From a virus (Duplodnaviria > Heunggongvirae > Uroviricota > Caudoviricetes): DNA of 64,000 nt. Shown piece by piece: positions 18,624 through 63,659 of the stretch. The notes below the pieces were generated by a model. The model worked only from the letters and a program-made list of their open reading frames with translations, was not told the origin of the DNA and did no database searches. Made by a program: the position numbers and the translations under genes. How positions within the stretch are numbered: the first letter of the stretch is position 1; every line of letters starts with the position of its first letter. The stretch lies in IMG/VR virus record IMGVR_UViG_3300020451_002055, one strand, 5' to 3'.

Positions 18624-21185
18624 TCAAAGCCGAAAGCCGTCTGCAGGATTTGAGAAACCTTCGGAACTCATAATCCCGAGCCTAACAAGCTCTTGAACCA
18701 TATAGCCATAGAAATCAGGATCATACAATCCATCCCACATCAAAAGCGAGTTGGGATCTCTGACAAACCTGGCAGATGCGCTGTGTTGCAGTTCTGCTGA
18801 CTGAACGTCCTGCAACGAAATGAACCGGTACTTACCAGACTTAGAAGGAGATTCCTCTTCTTCGCCGCCCCAGTCGATCAACGTGTGAAACTCAACAGAA
18901 ACGCATGCTGCCTCAAACCTGCGGGACAGTTCGCCAGCCGTCATGTCCCCCAGTTCATCATTGATGATTTTCCTAAACAATTCGGCATCCACCATGACCG
19001 GAATGTAGCTGCTCTCGATAACTCTAGTCAGGTGATCGGTCTTTCGCATATCCCAGGTTGTATCGGCCTCTCTAATAGCTTCGATCAAGGACAAGTTTGC
19101 TTTGCTCTCTGCGAACCTATTAAATGCGGCTTGGCAGTTATCCACTGTGATACCGTTTTGAAGTTCGCTCAGAAGATGGTCTCTCGATTCGATGAAGTCC
19201 GGATTGTCCGTAAACGGAAACTGCTTGTCAGGAGTAAGGAGAAAGCAGTAGACGCCCCGAGAAAGCCTGTTGTATTCGCCATGTCGGTTGACCCGGCCAG
19301 CGACCTGCAGGCAAGCTGTTACAGACCTTGCTTCCGAGAACGCATGTCTAAAGGACAAATCGATACCAGTCTCAAGGACCGAGGTAGCAAAGACGATGAT
19401 GTCGTCCTTGCTTTTCAATCGTTCTTTGATACTGTTAATGATTCTTGATTTGTCATACTTGCTAAGCGCGCTGCTAATGTGGTAGATATCTTCTTTAGGG
19501 GCAATCTCCATTTCTCTTGCGTAATGGGCGAGCAGTGCAGCATTCCTTGTCGTTTGCAAGATACAGAGTCGAGGGCCTCTGAATTGCGAGATTCTGCGCA
19601 GCAGCGAGGCTCCCGTGAAAATATGGGTTCTATCTTCTCTAACAAGGCCCCTAACAGGAGCCCTTCTGCGCTCCATATCCATCATCTGACTTGAAAGCTC
19701 TTCGCTAACAACCTCATGGATGTCAAGAGGTTCGATATTGAGATGCTCAGATTGCCACGGACGAATAGGAGTGCCTGAGCAAAAGATAAAGACGCATCCC
19801 CATTTTTCATTCAGAGTTTTAAGCGTCGATGCAATGATCGGCCAGAGGTGCGGAGGGAAACTGTTGTCGAACTCATCCAGAACAACAACGGAACCTGGAA
19901 GCTGATGCAACTTACGGAGCCTGTGCGTCTCTCCGCTCAGAATCGTCTCGAAGAACTGCACGGCTGTAACGCATGTGACGGGCGACCGCCAAAGCTTGCC
20001 GAAGGCAGCGGCAATCCAGTTATCGTACCCGGCAACGTGATGATGTTCTGCAACTGATCGCTCGCCAGGATCATAATCCCAACGAACTCTGTCGCTACTC
20101 TGCTGATCAGTTCCAAGACGAAAAGCTGCCCTCAGAGCTTCGGTTGTCTGACTTGTTGTATTAATGAAAGGAGAAACATTGTACACATGGCGCAGCCCTT
20201 GAGCCTCTGCGATGCGAAGGGCAAGAGCAGTCGAGGAGAAAGTCTTGCCGGAACCGACTGTTGCAGAGAGCATGTAGAATGATTGATTTGGGTCGCACTC
20301 CAAGCATTCCTGAAAAAGCCTGTCTCTGATGATATTTCTACGAGTCCTGCGAGCCTTTCCTCTCATCTCTCTATCTCGAACTCGGCGCACGTGCCCGATA
20401 AGCCTTTCAAGCCTGATCGTCGGTTGAAGTTCAACCTGATCAAAATCATCAAGAGGATACTTAGAAAATCTGCTCGATGCATCCAGATGATCAGAATCAA
20501 CCAGCATCGAGAAGAGGATGCGCATATCGATTGCATTAATGTCATCAATGCTAAGATTGGCCCTCGTCATCTTTCTGGGAAGCTCTTTGCAATGAACCTG
20601 AAACATATCGTTGATATATCTCTGAACATAGGCAGGCGTCTGCCCGTGATTGCCAAATCCAGGCTCTTGCAACAGAAAATCAAACGATCGCACGGCGTTG
20701 CCGCTAACTGTCTTCATCCGCCTAGAGCCCCTCTTGCGGGGTTTATGCGGCTCGATTGGATTCCGAGTCTTCCAGGCCGCTCCATCATTTAGCAGACCAA
20801 CATGGTGCCCCTCAACAAGAGCGCCAGAGATGACATGCGTCATCTTGTTTGTTCGAGCAAATGCTTCGAGGAGCAAGGCAACGCCCGCATGAACATGGTT
20901 GCCTCTCTCGCTCATGGGGCCGAGACCCTTCATGGCAAGCTGAAATGGAACCATGAGCTTTCCCATGTCGTGAAGCCAGGCGGCATCCATCAGCGACCCA
21001 TGCAGAGCATCGACAGCGCAAGGCCCTCTGTAAAAACTCAGAGCGTTAGTAGCCGCCCGCGCGGCCTTATCCATAACGCCAGCGACATGATTGCGATAAA
21101 GCTGCGGCGGAACAGGGTTCCCTCGCCGATCCTCGCCTTCGCTGCTTGCAACCAGCGGTCCTTCTGGTAGTTGATATGTTGCCAT
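18624..21185 (-). CDS. cas3: CRISPR-associated HD nuclease-helicase Cas3
   Basis: YRNHV, WLHDMGK, MLVDSDHLD (HD); ATVGSGKT, VVLDEF, FATSVLETGIDL, QVAGRVNRHG (SF2 helicase). Confidence 0.95.
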   Translation of the reverse strand: MATYQLPEGPLVASSEGEDRRGNPVPPQLYRNHVAGVMDKAARAATNALSFYRGPCAVDALHGSLMDAAWLHDMGKLMVPFQLAMKGLGPMSERGNHVHAGVALLLEAFARTNKMTHVISGALVEGHHVGLLNDGAAWKTRNPIEPHKPRKRGSRRMKTVSGNAVRSFDFLLQEPGFGNHGQTPAYVQRYINDMFQVHCKELPRKMTRANLSIDDINAIDMRILFSMLVDSDHLDASSRFSKYPLDDFDQVELQPTIRLERLIGHVRRVRDREMRGKARRTRRNIIRDRLFQECLECDPNQSFYMLSATVGSGKTFSSTALALRIAEAQGLRHVYNVSPFINTTSQTTEALRAAFRLGTDQQSSDRVRWDYDPGERSVAEHHHVAGYDNWIAAAFGKLWRSPVTCVTAVQFFETILSGETHRLRKLHQLPGSVVVLDEFDNSFPPHLWPIIASTLKTLNEKWGCVFIFCSGTPIRPWQSEHLNIEPLDIHEVVSEELSSQMMDMERRRAPVRGLVREDRTHIFTGASLLRRISQFRGPRLCILQTTRNAALLAHYAREMEIAPKEDIYHISSALSKYDKSRIINSIKERLKSKDDIIVFATSVLETGIDLSFRHAFSEARSVTACLQVAGRVNRHGEYNRLSRGVYCFLLTPDKQFPFTDNPDFIESRDHLLSELQNGITVDNCQAAFNRFAESKANLSLIEAIREADTTWDMRKTDHLTRVIESSYIPVMVDAELFRKIINDELGDMTAGELSRRFEAACVSVEFHTLIDWGGEEEESPSKSGKYRFISLQDVQSAELQHSASARFVRDPNSLLMWDGLYDPDFYGYMVQELVRLGIMSSEGFSNPADGFRL

Positions 21186-21222: not shown

Positions 21223-22173
21223 TTAGTTGATCAGATCGACGAACTCGACGCCCTCGAACTGCTCCGAAAGGCTTTCTGCTGTCGGGAAGTCGTAGTCATC
21301 GTAACCCGTAGGCATGATCGCCTTGTCCTTAAGACGAGGCTTCATCCCCCTGAGAATATGGAACTGGTTTGAAGGAAAGTATGTGCGACCATCAGGCCGG
21401 GCCGAAAAAGCAGATACGACATGGACGCCGACTCGCTGAGCGGAACGGTCATCGAACATGTGAGGGATCAATCGTTCAAGGAAGTCAATGTCTTCTTCCG
21501 TTGCGCCGTTCTGACCCGCCTGAAAACCGTTCACGATGATGTGGCCAAAGAGGATCGCATGCTCGATGACCCGGATACCGTCCGGCGCGATATCGCTGAT
21601 ATCGGTTTTGTCCGCATGGGCTTCTCGAATCGGATGCTTCTTGCCGTTCGAAGAGATGTACGGAGTCACCGGGGCGACCGATGTGGGGAACGCGACCTGA
21701 ACGCATCCCTCGAACTTGCTGCGGAACTTCTTCTCGCCGTCTTCGCTCTTGATGTCGCTGATTGCCATTGCCCCGAAGAGGCGGGCGTCAAAGTAGCGAC
21801 TCAGGAAAGAGGCGGGATCATCCGACGCAAGCCCGAGAGCCTTCTTAGCAGCCTCATAAGGCTTGATATCCGCAAATCCCCTTGTTTCCGATTCGTAGAC
21901 CTGCCGGTTTTGCGGCTCGATGCCCTCGGCGATGTCGGCGATCAGAGGATCAGCATCTCCCCGATGAACCAGGTCTCGAATCTTTCGCTTCACAGCGAAG
22001 GGACTCATGATATTGTGCCCGGTCGAAGTGACCCGAGGTCCGCCGGTATCGACTTCTCCGTTGGGATTTGCCATCTCGACGGAAACTGCGTAAGCGATGA
22101 TACGGTCCCGAATACGCTTGCCGCCCATGTTCGTCGTTTTGCCCTCTGCAGGCTTCGTCTTAGTCGCAGGCAT
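21223..22173 (-). CDS. cas7: Type I-C Cas7 (Csd2)
   Basis: NPNGEVDTGGPR, AVKRKIRD, YFDARLFGA, GCVQVAF. Confidence 0.9.
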   Translation of the reverse strand: MPATKTKPAEGKTTNMGGKRIRDRIIAYAVSVEMANPNGEVDTGGPRVTSTGHNIMSPFAVKRKIRDLVHRGDADPLIADIAEGIEPQNRQVYESETRGFADIKPYEAAKKALGLASDDPASFLSRYFDARLFGAMAISDIKSEDGEKKFRSKFEGCVQVAFPTSVAPVTPYISSNGKKHPIREAHADKTDISDIAPDGIRVIEHAILFGHIIVNGFQAGQNGATEEDIDFLERLIPHMFDDRSAQRVGVHVVSAFSARPDGRTYFPSNQFHILRGMKPRLKDKAIMPTGYDDYDFPTAESLSEQFEGVEFVDLIN

Positions 22174-22644: not shown

Positions 22645-24258
22645 GGTAACTCCTTTCGCCTGCATGGCGAGACTGATGATGGACGGCATGCGGAAAAAGT
22701 CCCGCCTTGCGCCTGAATACATGGGGTCCGCATCGGGAAGCATCCTCCGGTGAGCCATATCGATCATCAACCAGATATGATGCCTTGCGATAATCGACAG
22801 AATGCGATCCGCAGTCGATGGGTTGCCCGTCAGAGCAAAGTCCAGCATGTCCGCGTAACGAATAACGGGAGGCCAATGCTCTTTGCTCTTACCCGTTTTT
22901 GGATCTTTACCTCTGATGGAGTTAAGGTATCCTCTATCGAGCTTTCCAGACATTACGCCCGCGCTCTTTGTCCATCTCGCATTCAGCACTCGCCAAACAT
23001 GGTCAAAACCCATGGGAATGCAAAACGAACTAGCAAACCTGTTAGTGATATTCGGCCCAGCTAGTTCTCTAGGGCCTCCCTCTGAAGCAGAGCGCCAGAG
23101 TTCCATTTTCTCCGAGATCGCCGAAAGCGACAACGATTGACTGACCAGAGGTAGAGCCATACCGCTCTGACCCGCAATAGAGAAGAGTTCGATCTGAACC
23201 GAAGAATCGGGATGATCAACAGCCGCCCCCTTGATCGTAGCGATAGACCTTTGATACAGGTCGATTGTTGCTGCTGCGATTTCTTCTTGAGTGATTTTGG
23301 CATCTTCGGCAGCAACGGCATCCTCCTCGTCCAAGACAGAAGAAAAATCGACCTGGAATCCTCCGATCTTGCTGTCTCCGCTGAGCAATGCGATGATGTT
23401 GCTCTCGATGTCCTGAATCAGTTGTCCGTTCTGATCGAACGGACAGGACAGAAACAACATCTTTCCTTCGCCCGCGATAATTGCGGCATGAGCAGCCTTG
23501 CCGTAAAGACGCTCCGGGTTCGCGAGAGCAGCCGTCGCAACAGCCAATCTCTGAGCCGTCTTCTGCGTCATGGGAAGCGGGTTCGTTCCTGATCTCCCGT
23601 AAACCTGATCGCTGGGGCTGGCAGCATTCCTTGAGTATGGGGAAACTCCGCCGATGACCGGAAACACCACCTTTTTCATGAGCGTGCCCGAGACCGGTCC
23701 TTCTTCTCCTGCAAAATCTCTGATCGAAGGAGCAGCCTTGCCGCCAGCCGTCGAGGATGATGCGTCCGCCATAGCTCCGTTCAATACAGAGAGATAGCTG
23801 TCTGACTGGACGTTGACGCCCTTGATCGAAAACAGAATGATGGCAGACTCAATAAGACCTGACTTTAGGCCTCGCTCTCGGAGTTCTTCTCGAATAACCT
23901 CCTGGCTGTCATCGGCTCCGCAGAACTTACAGACAGCATCCATGAGAGTACCCGTTTTGCCCTTAGTAAGAGCCGTCATGGGACGCAAGCTCGCTCCGCC
24001 CTTAATCAGACCTGCGATATTGCTCGGCAGTTTCGTCATCTGAGAGATTCGGCCATGCGGACCTCTAACCTTGGCGTTGGGCTGCAGGACTCTGAACGAG
24101 CCTCCGGTCCTGATCGAAAGCGAATCCATGACGGATCCGTCAGAGGAGAGCTTGACCTCAATGATCGGACGGTTCTCTTTTGCATGGATCGTATCGAGCA
24201 GCGGGTAATCGTCTTGCTGAGGCATGCCCAGAGCGATACGGTTAATGGTGTCAAGCAC
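22213..24258 (-). CDS. cas8c: Type I-C large subunit Cas8c (Csd1), divergent
   Basis: 681 aa between cas5 and cas7; C-terminal SPAYLFG motif. Confidence 0.75.
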   Translation of the reverse strand: MLDTINRIALGMPQQDDYPLLDTIHAKENRPIIEVKLSSDGSVMDSLSIRTGGSFRVLQPNAKVRGPHGRISQMTKLPSNIAGLIKGGASLRPMTALTKGKTGTLMDAVCKFCGADDSQEVIREELRERGLKSGLIESAIILFSIKGVNVQSDSYLSVLNGAMADASSSTAGGKAAPSIRDFAGEEGPVSGTLMKKVVFPVIGGVSPYSRNAASPSDQVYGRSGTNPLPMTQKTAQRLAVATAALANPERLYGKAAHAAIIAGEGKMLFLSCPFDQNGQLIQDIESNIIALLSGDSKIGGFQVDFSSVLDEEDAVAAEDAKITQEEIAAATIDLYQRSIATIKGAAVDHPDSSVQIELFSIAGQSGMALPLVSQSLSLSAISEKMELWRSASEGGPRELAGPNITNRFASSFCIPMGFDHVWRVLNARWTKSAGVMSGKLDRGYLNSIRGKDPKTGKSKEHWPPVIRYADMLDFALTGNPSTADRILSIIARHHIWLMIDMAHRRMLPDADPMYSGARRDFFRMPSIISLAMQAKGVTMSDVSSSPAYLFGVYCAAASELQIAYHRFNGNTVPESLVGYKVMSLLATGRTWEMLLEQISRLVNPYEQKAESIRNRGEKAYPKSKSKEASDLQAKWNTFRKVAKAMGSELPYERMMTVTERAQAAMGFQIGYRKMNKPETAE

Positions 24259-24934
24259 AGATGGCCTCCTCTGCTTCGAAGCTCAGAACTCCGTTGACAA
24301 CGCGAACATTGTCGTCGAACCGAGGAGCATACCTGCTTTTTCCATCGTAGTTGTCATCCTGACTAAACGGATGCCGCATCATTCGACCGATCTCAATGTT
24401 GACTGCTGGATCGGGAGAAGTCTCGGGCAGAAGCTCGCCGAGGTACGTCGGCACATGCTCTGATCTTCCGAGAGCCACCGGTCGGAGCGGCTGTCCTCTT
24501 GCAATACGTCTCTTGAACATCTCCAAGAGGTAATGAGCATGATTGGTGCCCGCGTGTCGAAGAGCGGCCCCTCTGAGATACTGGTCGCCAATGTAGACGA
24601 TCTCGAAGAAGATTTGGTAGGCAACATCTGTTAGGATTGTCTCTCGCCTCTGGACGGCATTGCCTTCTTTGATCAGCGTGCCTTTTCTCTGAGCAGCGAA
24701 CCGACCGTTGTAGGTGAACCGGTCATACCGGACAGGTCTGCAAATATGCACCTTTGTCGGGACGATTCGGGCTCCTGCAGAATGGCCGCAGATATGCTCG
24801 ATCATCCCTTTGACCGCAGAATATGTCGGAGCCGGATAGCTCGCGGCGTCCGCGTCGGAATCGGGGCGAGCAAACATGGCGGTATTGCCATGGACCTCGA
24901 ACGCCCCCTTGTATGGCTTTGTGACGGGTAGCAA
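24251..24934 (-). CDS. cas5: Type I-C Cas5 (Cas5d, pre-crRNA processing)
   Basis: FEVHGNTAMFARP, SYPAPTYSAVKGMI, ILTDVAYQI, ALGRSE; TTG start at 24934 has AGGAG 7 nt upstream. Confidence 0.9.
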   Translation of the reverse strand: MLPVTKPYKGAFEVHGNTAMFARPDSDADAASYPAPTYSAVKGMIEHICGHSAGARIVPTKVHICRPVRYDRFTYNGRFAAQRKGTLIKEGNAVQRRETILTDVAYQIFFEIVYIGDQYLRGAALRHAGTNHAHYLLEMFKRRIARGQPLRPVALGRSEHVPTYLGELLPETSPDPAVNIEIGRMMRHPFSQDDNYDGKSRYAPRFDDNVRVVNGVLSFEAEEAICA

Positions 24935-24987
24935 CGGTTGGCTCCTTTCTGCGGACTGAGCCGCTCCGAACGGCCATGTCCCCTTTG

Positions 24988-25017
24988 ACAATACGGCAAG
25001 CCAAAAGCCATAGTCAA
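24988..25017 (-). promoter_or_regulatory. Putative sigma70-like promoter of cas operon
   Basis: TTGACT-18 nt-TATTGT. Confidence 0.5.
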
Positions 25018-25057: not shown

Positions 25058-25087
25058 TTGACACAGAACCGAAGGCTCCTATAGGAT
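25058..25087 (+). promoter_or_regulatory. Putative promoter in CRISPR leader
   Basis: TTGACA-18 nt-TAGGAT, about 110 nt upstream of first repeat. Confidence 0.5.
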
Positions 25088-25196: not shown

Positions 25197-26248
25197 CTTG
25201 AAGGCCACCTCTCTTTGAGAGTAGATTGCAACTGGAAGACAGAAGACTCCTTCAGCTTGAGTGTTGAAGGCCACCTCTCTTTGAGAGTAGATTGCAACAC
25301 CAATGGCAACGGATTCCATGTCACGCTGGTTGAAGGCCACCTCTCTTTGAGAGTAGATTGCAACTCAAGGTTGACGGAGTAGACAGACGCCATGGTTGAA
25401 GGCCACCTCTCTTTGAGAGTAGATTGCAACTGATAGAGGATCTGCCGCTACAGCCCGCCAGTTGTCCGGGGTCACCTCTCTTTGAGAGTAGATTGCAACA
25501 CGACTCCGACGAATGGCGAGAGGTCGAGAGTTAAAGGCCACCTCTCTTTGAGAGTAGATTGCAACGGCTCAGTTCACGTCAGCGCGATCATTCTATTTGC
25601 ATCTCGCATGTAAATGCGAGTAGATTGCAACAGGATGCTGACACCAGGGTCGAACACCTCGGTTGTATCTCGCATGTAAATGCGAGCAGATTGCAACGAA
25701 CTTGCCGGGCTGAGCCTTGGCGACCTGATTGAAGGCCACCTCTCTTTGAGAGTAGATTGCAACGGATAGAGCCAGTCGATAACCGCATCAACTGCTGAAG
25801 GCCACCTTTCTTTGAGAGTAGATTGCAACAGCGAGCAGTTCGCCTTCTGTACCGACATCGTTGAAGGTCACCTCTCTTTGAGAGCAGATTGTAACTGAGC
25901 ATCGGAGTCAACTGTGTATTAGATCATTACATCTCGCATATGCGAGTAGATTGCAATCATGTCATGCTAACCGGACCAGCAGGCATTCATAAAAGTCGTC
26001 TCCCTTGGAGTAGATTGTAACCCTTTGACCATAAAACGGCTTGCTTCCTAAAGTCGTCCCAATCGGGTAGATTACAATTTCCGGACGCTGCCTCCGCAGC
26101 GCTTCCTGTAAGGCATCTCCGTCAGGAGTAGATTACAATGTGAGACCGTCTTTCGTTATGGGAGCCTCGATCGCCTACGGCGTAAATTACAACTACGGAG
26201 GATCAACGAAAAAGAATGCTCGTCTCCCGCTTGGGAGTAGATTGCAAT
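25197..26248 (+). CRISPR. CRISPR array, 17 repeat units, mostly 30-nt spacers
   Basis: Consensus GTTGAAGGCCACCTCTCTTTGAGAGTAGATTGCAAC (36 nt), 66-nt period; 11-nt handle TAGATTGCAAC resembles type I-C TGGATTGAAAC; leader at low-coordinate end, divergent units distal. Confidence 0.97.
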
Positions 26249-26448
26249 AAGCAGGCCAAAGCTGTAGCCGGGTACAGGTACATGTTCTCTCAACAGAGGG
26301 ACTGGTGGTAATGCCGGTCTCTCTATTCAAAACGAACAGAACAACGATTCGATTTCCCGCGAAATTACCCGCCGGGCAAAAGCCGATTTAGGAGTCCCTA
26401 TTTCTGGTATGGGAGTCCCATGACAATATAAATGGGGAGGGGCCGGGC

Positions 26449-61168: not shown

Positions 61169-61241
61169 TAGGCCCTGTCGGATTCGAACCGACGACCAAG
61201 GAATTATGAGTTCCCTGCTCTGACCGCTGAGCTAAGGGCCT
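61169..61241 (-). tRNA. tRNA with CAT anticodon, Ile2-like body
   Basis: GGGAA-CTCATAA-TTCCT; full cloverleaf; no CCA. Confidence 0.9.
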
Positions 61242-61324
61242 GAAGAGCGGGTTGACGGAGAGTATTTTCCTAGGCTTTATTCCTCTCGCACGCAAGTCGC
61301 TTGCTGATTTTTATCAACCCGCAA

Positions 61325-61397
61325 TGACCCCTGCTGGATTTGAACCAGCGACCTCTGCCTTGTCATGGCAGCGCTCTAGCCGCTGAGCTAAGGGGCC
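61325..61397 (-). tRNA. tRNA-Val(GAC)
   Basis: CTGCC-ATGACAA-GGCAG. Confidence 0.93.
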
Positions 61398-61421
61398 AGG
61401 TATTCAGTTGTGTATTCGGAA

Positions 61422-61493
61422 TCCGACCGGAAGGATTCGAACCTTCGACACGGCGATTATCGGTCGCCTGCTCTGCCACTGAGCTACGATCGG
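61422..61493 (-). tRNA. tRNA-Ile(GAT)
   Basis: GGCGA-CCGATAA-TCGCC. Confidence 0.93.
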
Positions 61494-61552
61494 GTTGATA
61501 ATCGGAATAATGTCGGGTTCGCTGTTCATGTTTCAATCTACTCCATCGGAAG

Positions 61553-61626
61553 TGGACGATCCCAGACTCGAACTGGGGGCCTTCTGGGTGTAAACCAGAC
61601 GCTCTGGCCAACTGAGCTAATCGTCC
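61553..61626 (-). tRNA. tRNA-Val(TAC)
   Basis: TCTGG-TTTACAC-CCAGA. Confidence 0.93.
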
Positions 61627-61746
61627 AAAGCCGCCTGCGGATACTGAGGGCAGTATATCTCGACGCATGAGACACCCGCAAGCGGTAGCATCTACATTCG
61701 TCCAAACTCTTTTCAGTCCTTCAGGATTCCACGAAAAGATGCCGAT

Positions 61747-61980
61747 TTATGCCGGAACCGTTTCATCCTGCATGGACTTCAGCTTGCCGTAGTAGCGGCG
61801 TATGTGCTTGGCGAAAGCATACAGATACTCTTCCTCCGGCGACAGTTCAAGAGCTTCGAGCTTGTCGCAGAGTGCCCGAGCCATCAAAGGATCGAGTACC
61901 AACTGTATCTTGTTGCCTCGTAGACGGTTGGGTTCATCGATATGGAAGGCTGGCTTCCGGGTTCGCTGCGTGTCAGACAT
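61747..61980 (-). CDS. Hypothetical protein
   Basis: 77 aa, GGAG RBS. Confidence 0.55.
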   Translation of the reverse strand: MSDTQRTRKPAFHIDEPNRLRGNKIQLVLDPLMARALCDKLEALELSPEEEYLYAFAKHIRRYYGKLKSMQDETVPA

Positions 61981-62035
61981 TGTTCACTCCGTAGTAGTTG
62001 CTGTTCGGCCATACTACTAAGGAGTTACTTCACTT

Positions 62036-62422
62036 TCAGACAACAACATCTCCGGCATCCACCAAAGCCTCCGCCTGAATCCAGTCGAGCGTCTCTTCAG
62101 GAACGTTGCTGGTCAGCGTCATCGCATCTCCCAACTCTCGCCGGAAAACAGTCAAACAGCAGCGGACTGCAAGGTCATAGGCATGATCATTCGTCTCGAC
62201 GATGCAGTTGTTGTCGCCAGCCAACGTAATGCTGAACGTGTCATGCGACTCGTCCTTGACTCCGTTGAAGGTGATCTCTGAAGAAGAGAAGACAGGCTCG
62301 CCTGTTCCGTCCCAACCAGCCAACTTGCAGCCGATGGCAGTAACGACCTCCTCGCAGCGACGAGAAAGAAGAGCGAAGCCATTCGGTGTTAGGGATGGGA
62401 TTTGAAAGCTGTAGCGAGCCAT
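62036..62422 (-). CDS. Hypothetical protein (paralog of 45059-45577)
   Basis: FNGVK..SHDTF...TN..AYDLAVR. Confidence 0.6.
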   Translation of the reverse strand: MARYSFQIPSLTPNGFALLSRRCEEVVTAIGCKLAGWDGTGEPVFSSSEITFNGVKDESHDTFSITLAGDNNCIVETNDHAYDLAVRCCLTVFRRELGDAMTLTSNVPEETLDWIQAEALVDAGDVVV

Positions 62423-62896
62423 TCATTCCTCCTTGACGCGCCACTCAGCGGCGACGGCTTCGTACCGATCGGTGTAACCGAACTGAGCGAAGTTGCCATC
62501 CGCCTGCTTATGAGCCCGAAGAGCAGCTTCGAAGGCCTGACCCTTCGGAGTCAAACCGACGACAAGGCTAACGGCTGAAGGCCGAACAATCAAGCCCTCC
62601 GCCTCAAGATCATGCAGGCATGACCAATCGTCATGGTCAGTCAGGAGAAGCGACTTGTTGGACTTGTCCTTGAAGTAGCCCTTCAGACGAGAGCCGTACT
62701 CGGGCTTCCAGAATTGGTTGCCCTGACGACGCATACGTCGAGGATCGAGTTCTTGCCCTTCAACGACGCATGTGCCGATGTAGCCGAGGAGAGACCAATG
62801 GTCCTTGCCCCATTGATCATGGGGGATGTAGCCTTCAGCTTTCATTGCCTCGGTATCGGTCAGATCCATCAGAGCTTGCACGGTTTGGGTTTGCAT
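62423..62896 (-). CDS. Hypothetical protein
   Basis: WGKDHWSLL...HDDWSCL. Confidence 0.6.
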   Translation of the reverse strand: MQTQTVQALMDLTDTEAMKAEGYIPHDQWGKDHWSLLGYIGTCVVEGQELDPRRMRRQGNQFWKPEYGSRLKGYFKDKSNKSLLLTDHDDWSCLHDLEAEGLIVRPSAVSLVVGLTPKGQAFEAALRAHKQADGNFAQFGYTDRYEAVAAEWRVKEE

Positions 62897-62931
62897 GGGC
62901 TACCCCGCATAACCGTCATATTCGGTGCAAA

Positions 62932-63014
62932 TGAGCCCGGCGGGACTCGAACCCGCAACGATCTCTCGATCCGCGGATTTTAAGTCCGCTGCTTTGCCAT
63001 TTTGCTACGGGCCC
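62932..63014 (-). tRNA. tRNA-Leu(TAA)
   Basis: GCGGA-CTTAAAA-TCCGC, long variable arm. Confidence 0.93.
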
Positions 63015-63029
63015 AGAAAGATGGGTGAA

Positions 63030-63104
63030 TGCTCCCGAACGGATTCGAACCGCCAACTTTCTGGTTCTGAACCAGACGCCTCTGCCAGGTTGGGCCACGG
63101 GAGC
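63030..63104 (-). tRNA. tRNA with Leu anticodon CAG but short variable loop
   Basis: TCTGG-TTCAGAA-CCAGA then 5-nt AAGTT loop. Confidence 0.85.
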
Positions 63105-63113
63105 GTGCCTGAA

Positions 63114-63196
63114 TGTCCGTAGCAGGATTCGAACCTGCACCCTCTTGCGAGGACCACCACCTCAAGGTGGCGCGTCTGCCGTTCCGCCATACGGAC
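63114..63196 (-). tRNA. tRNA-Leu(GAG)
   Basis: CCACC-TTGAGGT-GGTGG, long variable arm. Confidence 0.93.
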
Positions 63197-63364
63197 CTGA
63201 TGTTTAGGAGAACTCCTTGAAGAACTCCTCTGCCTCGATGTAGCTCTCGCAGACTCGCTCATGCTCTCCATGCTTGCATGTAACGCTTCCGCTTGAGTTC
63301 GAAAGGAACCAGTTTCTTGCTTCGTCGATGGATGTTACTGCCTGCATTCCGTCTCCTTTTCAAA

Positions 63365-63446
63365 TGGCCCCGCCCGGGGTCGAACCGGGACTCCTCTCGG
63401 AACCGGATTTTGAATCCGGCGCGTCTGCCTATTCCGCCACGAGGCC
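63365..63446 (-). tRNA. tRNA-Leu(CAA)
   Basis: CCGGA-TTCAAAA-TCCGG, long variable arm. Confidence 0.93.
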
Positions 63447-63458
63447 TTCAGTTGTAAA

Positions 63459-63567
63459 TGCGGCTGGCAGGATTCGAACCTACAACCCGCCATTTAGACG
63501 GGACCATGCAATCAAGGTGGCTTGCGCAGAACCTTGTCGGTGCGTCGGCCTGTTGCGCCACAGCCGC
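63459..63567 (-). ncRNA. tRNA-Leu-like element (109 nt) with expanded anticodon arm
   Basis: Acceptor GCGGCTG/CAGCCGC+A, Leu-type D arm, variable arm CCCGTC/GGCGGG, T arm GTAGG-TTCGAAT-CCTGC. Confidence 0.7.
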
Positions 63568-63577
63568 AGTCAGTAAG

Positions 63578-63659
63578 TAGCCCCGACAGGTCTCGAACCT
63601 GCACTCCCGAAGGAACAAGATCCTAAATCTTGCGCGTCTGCCAATTCCGCCACGGAGCC
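63578..63659 (-). tRNA. tRNA-Leu(TAG)
   Basis: CAAGA-TTTAGGA-TCTTG, long variable arm. Confidence 0.93.

Follow-up and report, generated by a model that had tools for sequence, protein, structure and literature searches.

A putative CreR-like guide to the cas promoter among the distal units of a phage-encoded type I-C-like CRISPR array

Introduction

Racr RNAs are solitary-repeat RNA anti-CRISPRs of phages, which mimic host repeats and poison host complexes. Other crRNA-like RNAs act on cas promoters. According to a previous study, CreR is a stand-alone mini-array located in the cas intergenic regions of bacteria and archaea, which was demonstrated for types I-B, I-E, and V-A, while candidates were listed for type I-C; its psi-R1 retains the 5' handle and its psi-R2 the 3' part, and its PAM-proximal bases pair partially with the effector cas promoter, which leads to Cascade-guided autorepression without cleavage (Liu et al. 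2023, bioRxiv 10.1101/2023.03.10.532045). In the published CreA and CreR systems, the breakdown of pairing beyond the seed keeps the guides from licensing Cas3 (including bioRxiv 10.1101/2023.03.10.532045). Mini-arrays of cr-like RNAs were also described, whose spacers show partial complementarity to a cas promoter, with conserved identity in the seed and divergence downstream of it (Shmakov et al. 2023, bioRxiv 10.1101/2023.03.03.530964). In viral Cracr RNAs, shorter guides reduce the number of backbone subunits per complex (Liu et al., bioRxiv 10.1101/2024.10.29.618823). Moreover, huge phages carry type I-C variants lacking Cas1 and Cas2, according to Al-Shayeb et al. (2020, PMC7162821).

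The locus described here belongs to a phage with its own cas operon, and the candidate regulatory guide lies inside the main CRISPR array, among distal units whose repeats differ from one another. The features of the locus are listed in Table 1.

Results

The phage-encoded cas operon

The window, by which we mean the whole 64-kb stretch of DNA that was analysed, is part of ~487-kb phage DNA from Tara Oceans, which carries a tRNA cluster that points to a megaphage. The ten tRNA genes of this cluster are located at 61169-63659 on the minus strand, as is typical of very large phages.

Table 1. Coordinates of the array, its neighbouring genes, and predicted signals in the window
Feature	Position	Strand	Basis or description
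cas3 (HD nuclease and helicase), last gene of the operon	18624..21185	-	Pfam Cas3-like_C_2, 1.2e-12
cas7	21223..22173	-	Pfam Cas_Cas7, 2.6e-26
Large-subunit (cas8-like) gene, 681 aa	22213..24258	-	Assigned by position only
cas5	24251..24934	-	Pfam Cas_Cas5d, 3.4e-11
Candidate target of guide 13	24982..24993	+	-10 hexamer and bases just downstream; 5' flank TCC (24979-24981)
Predicted cas promoter TTGACT-18-TATTGT	24988..25017	-	Promoter scan
Predicted array promoter TTGACA-18-TAGGAT	25058..25087	+	Promoter scan
CRISPR array, 17 units	25197-26248	+	
Units 1-11	25197..25895	+	36-nt repeats, 30-nt spacers
Unit 12	25926..25957	+	Type B repeat without the GTAA loop, 32 nt
Unit 13	25988..26021	+	Hairpin CTCC-CTT-GGAG; handle from 26011 is the 5' handle of guide 13
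Guide 13	26022..26057	+	Handle-to-hairpin distance 36 nt; 42 nt in canonical units
Unit 14	26058..26078	+	Hairpin CCC-AATC-GGG (3' end of guide 13) and handle at 26068
Guides 14-16 and units 15-17	26079..26248	+	
13-bp hairpin after the array	26295..26324	+	-19.5 kcal/mol, no clear U-tract

The operon has the order cas5-cas8-cas7-cas3 and is divergent from the array, ~260 nt to its left on the minus strand. The Cas5 protein scores above the Pfam cut-off of Cas_Cas5d and reaches 48.5 bits with NCBIfam Cas5c, for which the cut-off is 85 bits, and its best solved relatives are the type I-C Cas5 pre-crRNA endonucleases 8g9t, 3kg4, 3vzi, 8dej, and 7kha. From these sequence matches, the cas5 product is presumed to be a pre-crRNA endonuclease; its catalytic triad found no confident placement. 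Neither the scanned ORFs nor the L105 Pfam tables showed a cas6. The best NCBIfam match of Cas7 is the type I-C Csd2 (61 bits, under the curated cut-off), while Cas3 was also matched by NCBIfam cas3_core (1.3e-15) and cas3_HD (6.7e-07). The 681-aa cas8-like protein has no Pfam or NCBIfam match, Cas8c, the large subunit of type I-C, included; a gene of equal size and place is present in all relatives. Neither cas1, cas2, nor cas4 was found among the ten ORFs downstream of cas3, and the precomputed Pfam tables contain no adaptation genes within 10 kb on either side in L105 and L111. Judged from sequence, the system is a minimal type I-C-like one, and it is called I-C-like because the large subunit is assigned by position only and the curated I-C cut-offs are not reached.

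Related loci

One related phage, L111 (JGI 3300071338), encodes a Cas7 that is 79% identical and has an array of 13 units. Its four leader-side repeats are identical, with the stem CTCCC/GGGAG, and its later units carry the stems CTCTC/GAGAG, CTCT/AGAG, and CTCCCT/AGGGAG with various loops; in the repeat after the last guide, the hairpin is kept and the handle is degraded. In L112, a 63% relative, the array starts with CTCTCAT-ATAG-ATGAGAG, and the contigs of L112, L113, and L118 all end in the first repeat. A pattern scan of metagenomes yielded L114 (the other three matches were unrelated), whose cas3 is 27% identical and is followed by a homogeneous array with 36-nt repeats of the form CTCTCATA-GGAA-TATGAGAG and 30-nt spacers. 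The same gene order, cas5-cas8-cas7-cas3, was also found in L119, a Bacillota MAG (GCA_030527285.1) with a Cas5 36% identical and a classical I-C repeat ending in TGGATTGAAAT. Directly upstream of its operon (L119:1-2620), 34 homogeneous copies of this classical repeat were observed, the contig ending in the array; no adaptation genes are present downstream of the operon.

Searches of IMG/VR with a repeat 14-mer gave 91 single chance matches, those with the paired-handle pattern retrieved only arrays of uniform repeats that are unrelated to this one, and the scan for back-translated Cas7 gave none; among GTDB genomes, only Cas7 relatives at 23-27% identity were found. No match to the array was present in 50,697 records of cultured phages. 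Spacers 2 and 3 gave none in IMG/VR when searched with their first 20 nt, and no spacer is shared between the window and L111. Six other assemblies of the window phage are uninformative on variation because they are 99.9-100% identical. The leader-proximal spacer 1 has a 20-nt exact PAM-proximal match (22/30 overall, the similarity then stopping; flank CCA) at L121:8481-8500 and L122:3654-3673, which are two copies of the 178-kb contig IMG/VR 3300024999_000035. This match may be due to chance or may mark a partial target in another large phage, and it was left unused because the probability of chance is roughly estimated at ~0.1; no protospacer of the array emerged that was convincing.

Layout of the array

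The leader-side units 1-11 have a period of 66 nt. Units 1-6 and 9-11 carry the type A repeat, which consists of 12 nt, the hairpin CTCTC-TTT-GAGAG, and the 11-nt handle TAGATTGCAAC, while units 7-8 carry the type B repeat with a 7-bp stem (CTCGCAT/ATGCGAG). In all intact repeats of the window, the hairpin is followed by TAGATTGCAAC or a close variant, and the repeats thus have the type I-C anatomy of a hairpin and an 11-nt handle ending in a ATTGAAAC-like sequence.

Type B repeats are interspersed among type A units, occurring at units 7, 8, and 12 (25596-25957). They resemble the canonical long-stem repeats of L112 and L114, which, as far as repeat sequence can tell, suggests either inter-array recombination between related phages or an old polymorphism. 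In unit 5 (25457-25499), the 5' part of the repeat reads TCCGGGG, against TTGAAGG elsewhere, with the hairpin and handle intact; the period preceding this unit is 69 nt rather than 66 nt.

L111 has an array promoter (TTGACA-18-TATACT) orthologous to that in the window, the cas and array promoters being consensus predictions only. Transcription of the array probably ends at the 13-bp hairpin that follows it, and in L111 a similar hairpin followed by TTTTT was found at the corresponding place. In addition, a small hairpin, TTCTCT-CAAC-AGAGGG (26285-26300), lies 36 nt past the last handle, sharing sequence with the 5' arm of the 13-bp hairpin, and might form the 3' end of a 17th guide.

Constraint on the distal units

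Units 13-17, hereafter the tail, each contain a perfect stem of 3-5 bp abutting the 11-nt handle, and the five structures given in an earlier note on this DNA were reproduced exactly. Besides those of units 13 and 14, they are CTCC-GTCA-GGAG in unit 15 (handle at 26129), CGCC-TAC-GGCG in unit 16 (handle at 26183), and CTCCC-GCTT-GGGAG in unit 17 (handle at 26238). The shortened periods that had been described were found again as well, with 64, 57, 61, 54, and 55 nt in units 13-17 against 66 nt in units 1-11.

Each tail handle differs at 1-2 of 11 positions. When the tail units were compared with the type A consensus, mismatches amounted to 39/60 in the 12 nt before the stem and 8/55 in the handle (Fisher p = 2.6e-8). 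Substitution decay of an ancestral hairpin was also simulated, a unit counting as kept if a perfect stem, 3 bp or longer, still adjoined its handle; under this rule, five of five stems were kept with a probability of 0.025 at 15% divergence and ~3e-6 at 60%, the latter being close to the divergence seen in the sequence beside the tail stems. The kept handle, the randomised pre-stem sequence, and the improbable survival of five stems (0.025 to 3e-6) support the view, already taken in the earlier note, that selection acts on the tail units to maintain the Cas5 hairpin with its 11-nt handle, and that they are not decaying freely.

Neutral decay, under which the tail would be a dead fossil whose stems survive by luck because C-run and G-run arms tolerate slippage, is highly improbable. 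Unit 13 is indeed derivable from CTCCC-TTT-GGGAG by two single-base deletions in homopolymer runs, and L111 contains one broken stem and one truncated unit (B9 and B10), but the simulation, the region-wise divergence, and the guide/promoter covariation given below contradict it. At L111:6395-6425 (minus strand), a unit cut to GGGAG and the handle stands right after the previous handle, and the preceding unit has a broken basal pair, which is real local decay within an otherwise constrained array. Folding of the tail RNA gave z = -1.0, that is, no global structure, and the minimum-energy fold shows the hairpins of units 12, 13, 15, and 16, without those of units 14 and 17.

The stems had also been described as differing in sequence from unit to unit, which holds in part. 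A two-sided change within the tail was found only in units 14 and 16, both at the second base pair, whereas CTCC(C)/(G)GGAG, the canonical stem of L111, recurs in units 13, 15, and 17. At the fourth base pair, every tail unit differs from the type A stem. Neither the handle nor base pairs 1 and 3 vary across the window, L111, L112, and L114, while the second and fourth pairs change on both sides together, the fourth being T-A, C-G, or G-C.

The tail and the type B units could alternatively be a mosaic of ordinary old immunity units, recombined from the arrays of related phages, with repeats that co-evolved with their own Cas5, stems that reflect past function, and a match to the cas promoter that is coincidental. 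The likeness of type B to the canonical repeats of L112 and L114, the canonical CTCC(C) stem of L111, and the A-B-A-B order, which is impossible by addition at the leader end alone, are consistent with such an origin. However, it leaves unexplained both the conservation of the handle beside a randomised pre-stem within the same units and the orthologous, co-varying promoter match in two phages, and we regard it as quite unlikely.

Guide 13 and the cas promoter

The predicted mature guide 13 RNA is 57 nt long (26011-26067). Its first 12 guide nucleotides are identical at 11 positions to 24982-24993, the mismatch falling at position 9, and among the 17 guides it is the only one with a 12-nt match of at most one mismatch in the 262-nt intergenic region between cas5 and the array. 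The same test in L111 gave one match, again by a single guide, the last one, which agrees at 11/12 positions (13/14) with a site overlapping the -10 box of its predicted cas promoter, TTGACA-16-TATATT. The handle-to-hairpin distance of this L111 guide is also 36 nt rather than 42 nt.

The two matches lie on the same strand, at offset 47 (window) and 48 (L111) of two 262-nt intergenic regions. When these regions were aligned, the target sites were in register, and the -35 and -10 blocks stood out as conserved islands. The two targets differ at positions 1, 4, 6, and 7, and all four differences are mirrored in the phage's own guide, this covariation coming from two independent lineages only, as the third (L112/L113/L118) breaks at the first repeat. 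Shuffling gave a chance of any match of 0.022 in the window and 0.013 in L111, or 2.8e-4 jointly, without taking the common position and strand into account. Across the whole window, nine 12-nt matches with at most one mismatch were observed against about five expected; because such matches are common, the case for guide 13 rests on the position and on the second phage.

Beyond the seed, similarity to the promoter breaks down, and in the window a three-base insertion interrupts it. The canonical PAM of type I-C is TTC; the target flanks, TCC in the window and CTT in L111, disagree with it and with each other.

Two promoter-like sites were observed on the plus strand, at 24985-25014, with its -35 box inside the target of guide 13, and at 26025-26054, within guide 13 itself; neither is conserved in L111. 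The latter, an internal promoter of the form TTGACC-18-TAAAGT, was considered as the source of the similarity between guide 13 and the cas promoter and was rejected because the L111 guide, which has no such box, still matches its own promoter.

The remaining tail guides

Guides 14, 15, and 16 have handle-to-hairpin distances of 38, 32, and 30 nt. No seed match of these guides was found in the 64-kb window of the ~487-kb phage DNA or in the loci of L111, L112, and L114, and they have no counterpart in L111. They are probably still processed, because their handles and hairpins are conserved. They may act as additional regulators, by analogy with viral multiplexed crRNA-like arrays, or may just as well be old immunity guides that have become shorter.

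The earlier note had read the tail as a battery of crRNA-like regulatory or decoy RNAs. As regulators, guide 13 gained support from its seed match to the cas promoter, the orthologous site in L111, and four co-varying positions, and guides 14-16 did not; the battery as a whole is unproven because no target was found for these three in the window or its relatives. The fuller version, in which each tail unit would belong to a battery, made up of short guides with a regulatory role or of anti-CRISPR decoys, that is directed at phage and host promoters or a host I-C system and diversified against recombination, is unlikely. It would account for the hairpin and handle kept in 5/5 tail units and for handle-to-hairpin distances down to 30-38 nt, and multiplexed viral arrays of crRNA-like regulators with 21-24-nt spacers, including some against I-C, offer a precedent (bioRxiv 10.1101/2024.10.29.618823). 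The lack of seed matches for guides 14-16 in the window, L111, L112, and L114, together with their lack of conservation in L111, weighs against it. The decoy part of this reading fails to find a foothold, the repeats matching the phage's own adjoining cas operon rather than any identified host system, and the single target found being the phage's own promoter. The proposed purpose of the differing repeats, diversification to avoid recombinational loss, explains them no better than a simpler reading, in which old repeats of an array without nearby adaptation genes drifted slowly and independently while their structure stayed constrained.

A related proposal is that guides 13-16, and perhaps a 17th, are hard-wired short guides, with which the phage would turn its own Cascade into a programmable repressor that acts on the cas operon as well as on further promoters of the phage or host. 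One half of the array would then serve immunity and be open to updating, while the other would be fixed and regulatory, with repeat divergence guarding against loss of the latter. We consider this extension doubtful.

Discussion

Proposed mechanism

Overall, the tail is probably the old, slowly evolving, functional end of the phage's I-C-like array, with the RNA of units 13-14 acting as a CreR-like autorepressor of the cas genes. From the anatomy of the units, the constraint on them, and the guide/promoter covariation in two phages, we infer the transcription, processing, binding, and repression set out as follows.

The array transcript would start at the plus-strand promoter (25058-25087) and probably end at the hairpin 26295-26324, and Cas5 would cut every repeat at the 3' base of its hairpin. 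Selection would then preserve the two elements required by Cas5 and Cascade, the base of the hairpin and the 11-nt handle, while the remainder of the old repeats drifts and changes in the stem are compensated; cutting at the stem base is thus proposed as the reason why only the hairpin base and handle have been kept. The RNA of about 57 nt between the cuts in units 13 and 14 (26011-26067) would assemble into Cascade and, through the first 12 nt of its guide, would anneal to the divergent cas promoter over the -10/start region. Pairing over ~12 bp may be enough for Cascade binding and too short for a full R-loop and cutting by Cas3. Cascade bound at this site would block RNA polymerase and therefore repress its own operon, holding the output of Cascade and Cas3 in check.

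If this is true, a virus regulates its own CRISPR-Cas system with a crRNA-like guide, and regulators of this kind can pass for ordinary units in the distal part of a main array, so that a search for stand-alone mini-arrays would overlook them. The family would also constitute a natural experiment on the needs of a Cas5c-type enzyme, since the stem sequence, the loop, and the upstream repeat all vary freely across it, and only the base of the hairpin and the 11-nt handle are retained. Furthermore, the reading offers a testable reason for the persistence of degenerate terminal repeats in some arrays.

Comparison with known systems

The tail units are similar to Racr in being phage-borne repeat-like RNAs that keep the features recognised by a Cas protein; unlike in Racr, nothing in the locus ties them to a host system. 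Similar to the Cracr arrays, the window has virus-encoded tandem crRNA-like units with shortened spacers (bioRxiv 10.1101/2024.10.29.618823). However, Cracrs hijack host Cas proteins without cognate cas genes, whereas here the cognate operon lies 260 nt from the array and the sole identified target is the phage's own. The viral cases of Shmakov et al. are copies of host mini-arrays and target host cas promoters, whereas guide 13 matches the phage's own cas promoter (bioRxiv 10.1101/2023.03.03.530964).

The system as a whole shares with the type I-C variant of Al-Shayeb et al. its residence in a huge phage, a Cas5d-like protein, and the lack of Cas6 and of adaptation genes, as far as the compared part of that account goes (PMC7162821). 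In the same part, the variant has a helicase instead of Cas3, whereas the Cas3 described here matches both HD and helicase models, and heterogeneous repeats or a self-regulating guide, as seen here, do not appear there.

The closest likeness in the guide itself is to CreR. Units 13 and 14 of the window, as well as the last two units of L111, flank the guide with a 5' handle and then a 3' hairpin. The complementarity to the cas promoter is partial and PAM-proximal, with 11/12 positions in the window and 11/12 (13/14) in L111, and falls over the -10/start region; moreover, guide and target change together in the two lineages compared. Unlike CreR, the candidate is a unit of the main array (13 of 17 in the window, the last in L111), which would be co-transcribed with ordinary crRNAs rather than stand alone, the system is encoded by a phage, and the target flanks are not the canonical I-C PAM. 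The proposed mechanism is thus of the known CreR type. Its novelty lies in the location, distal within a main array, and in the phage-encoded system, whose repeats vary although the hairpin and handle are kept.
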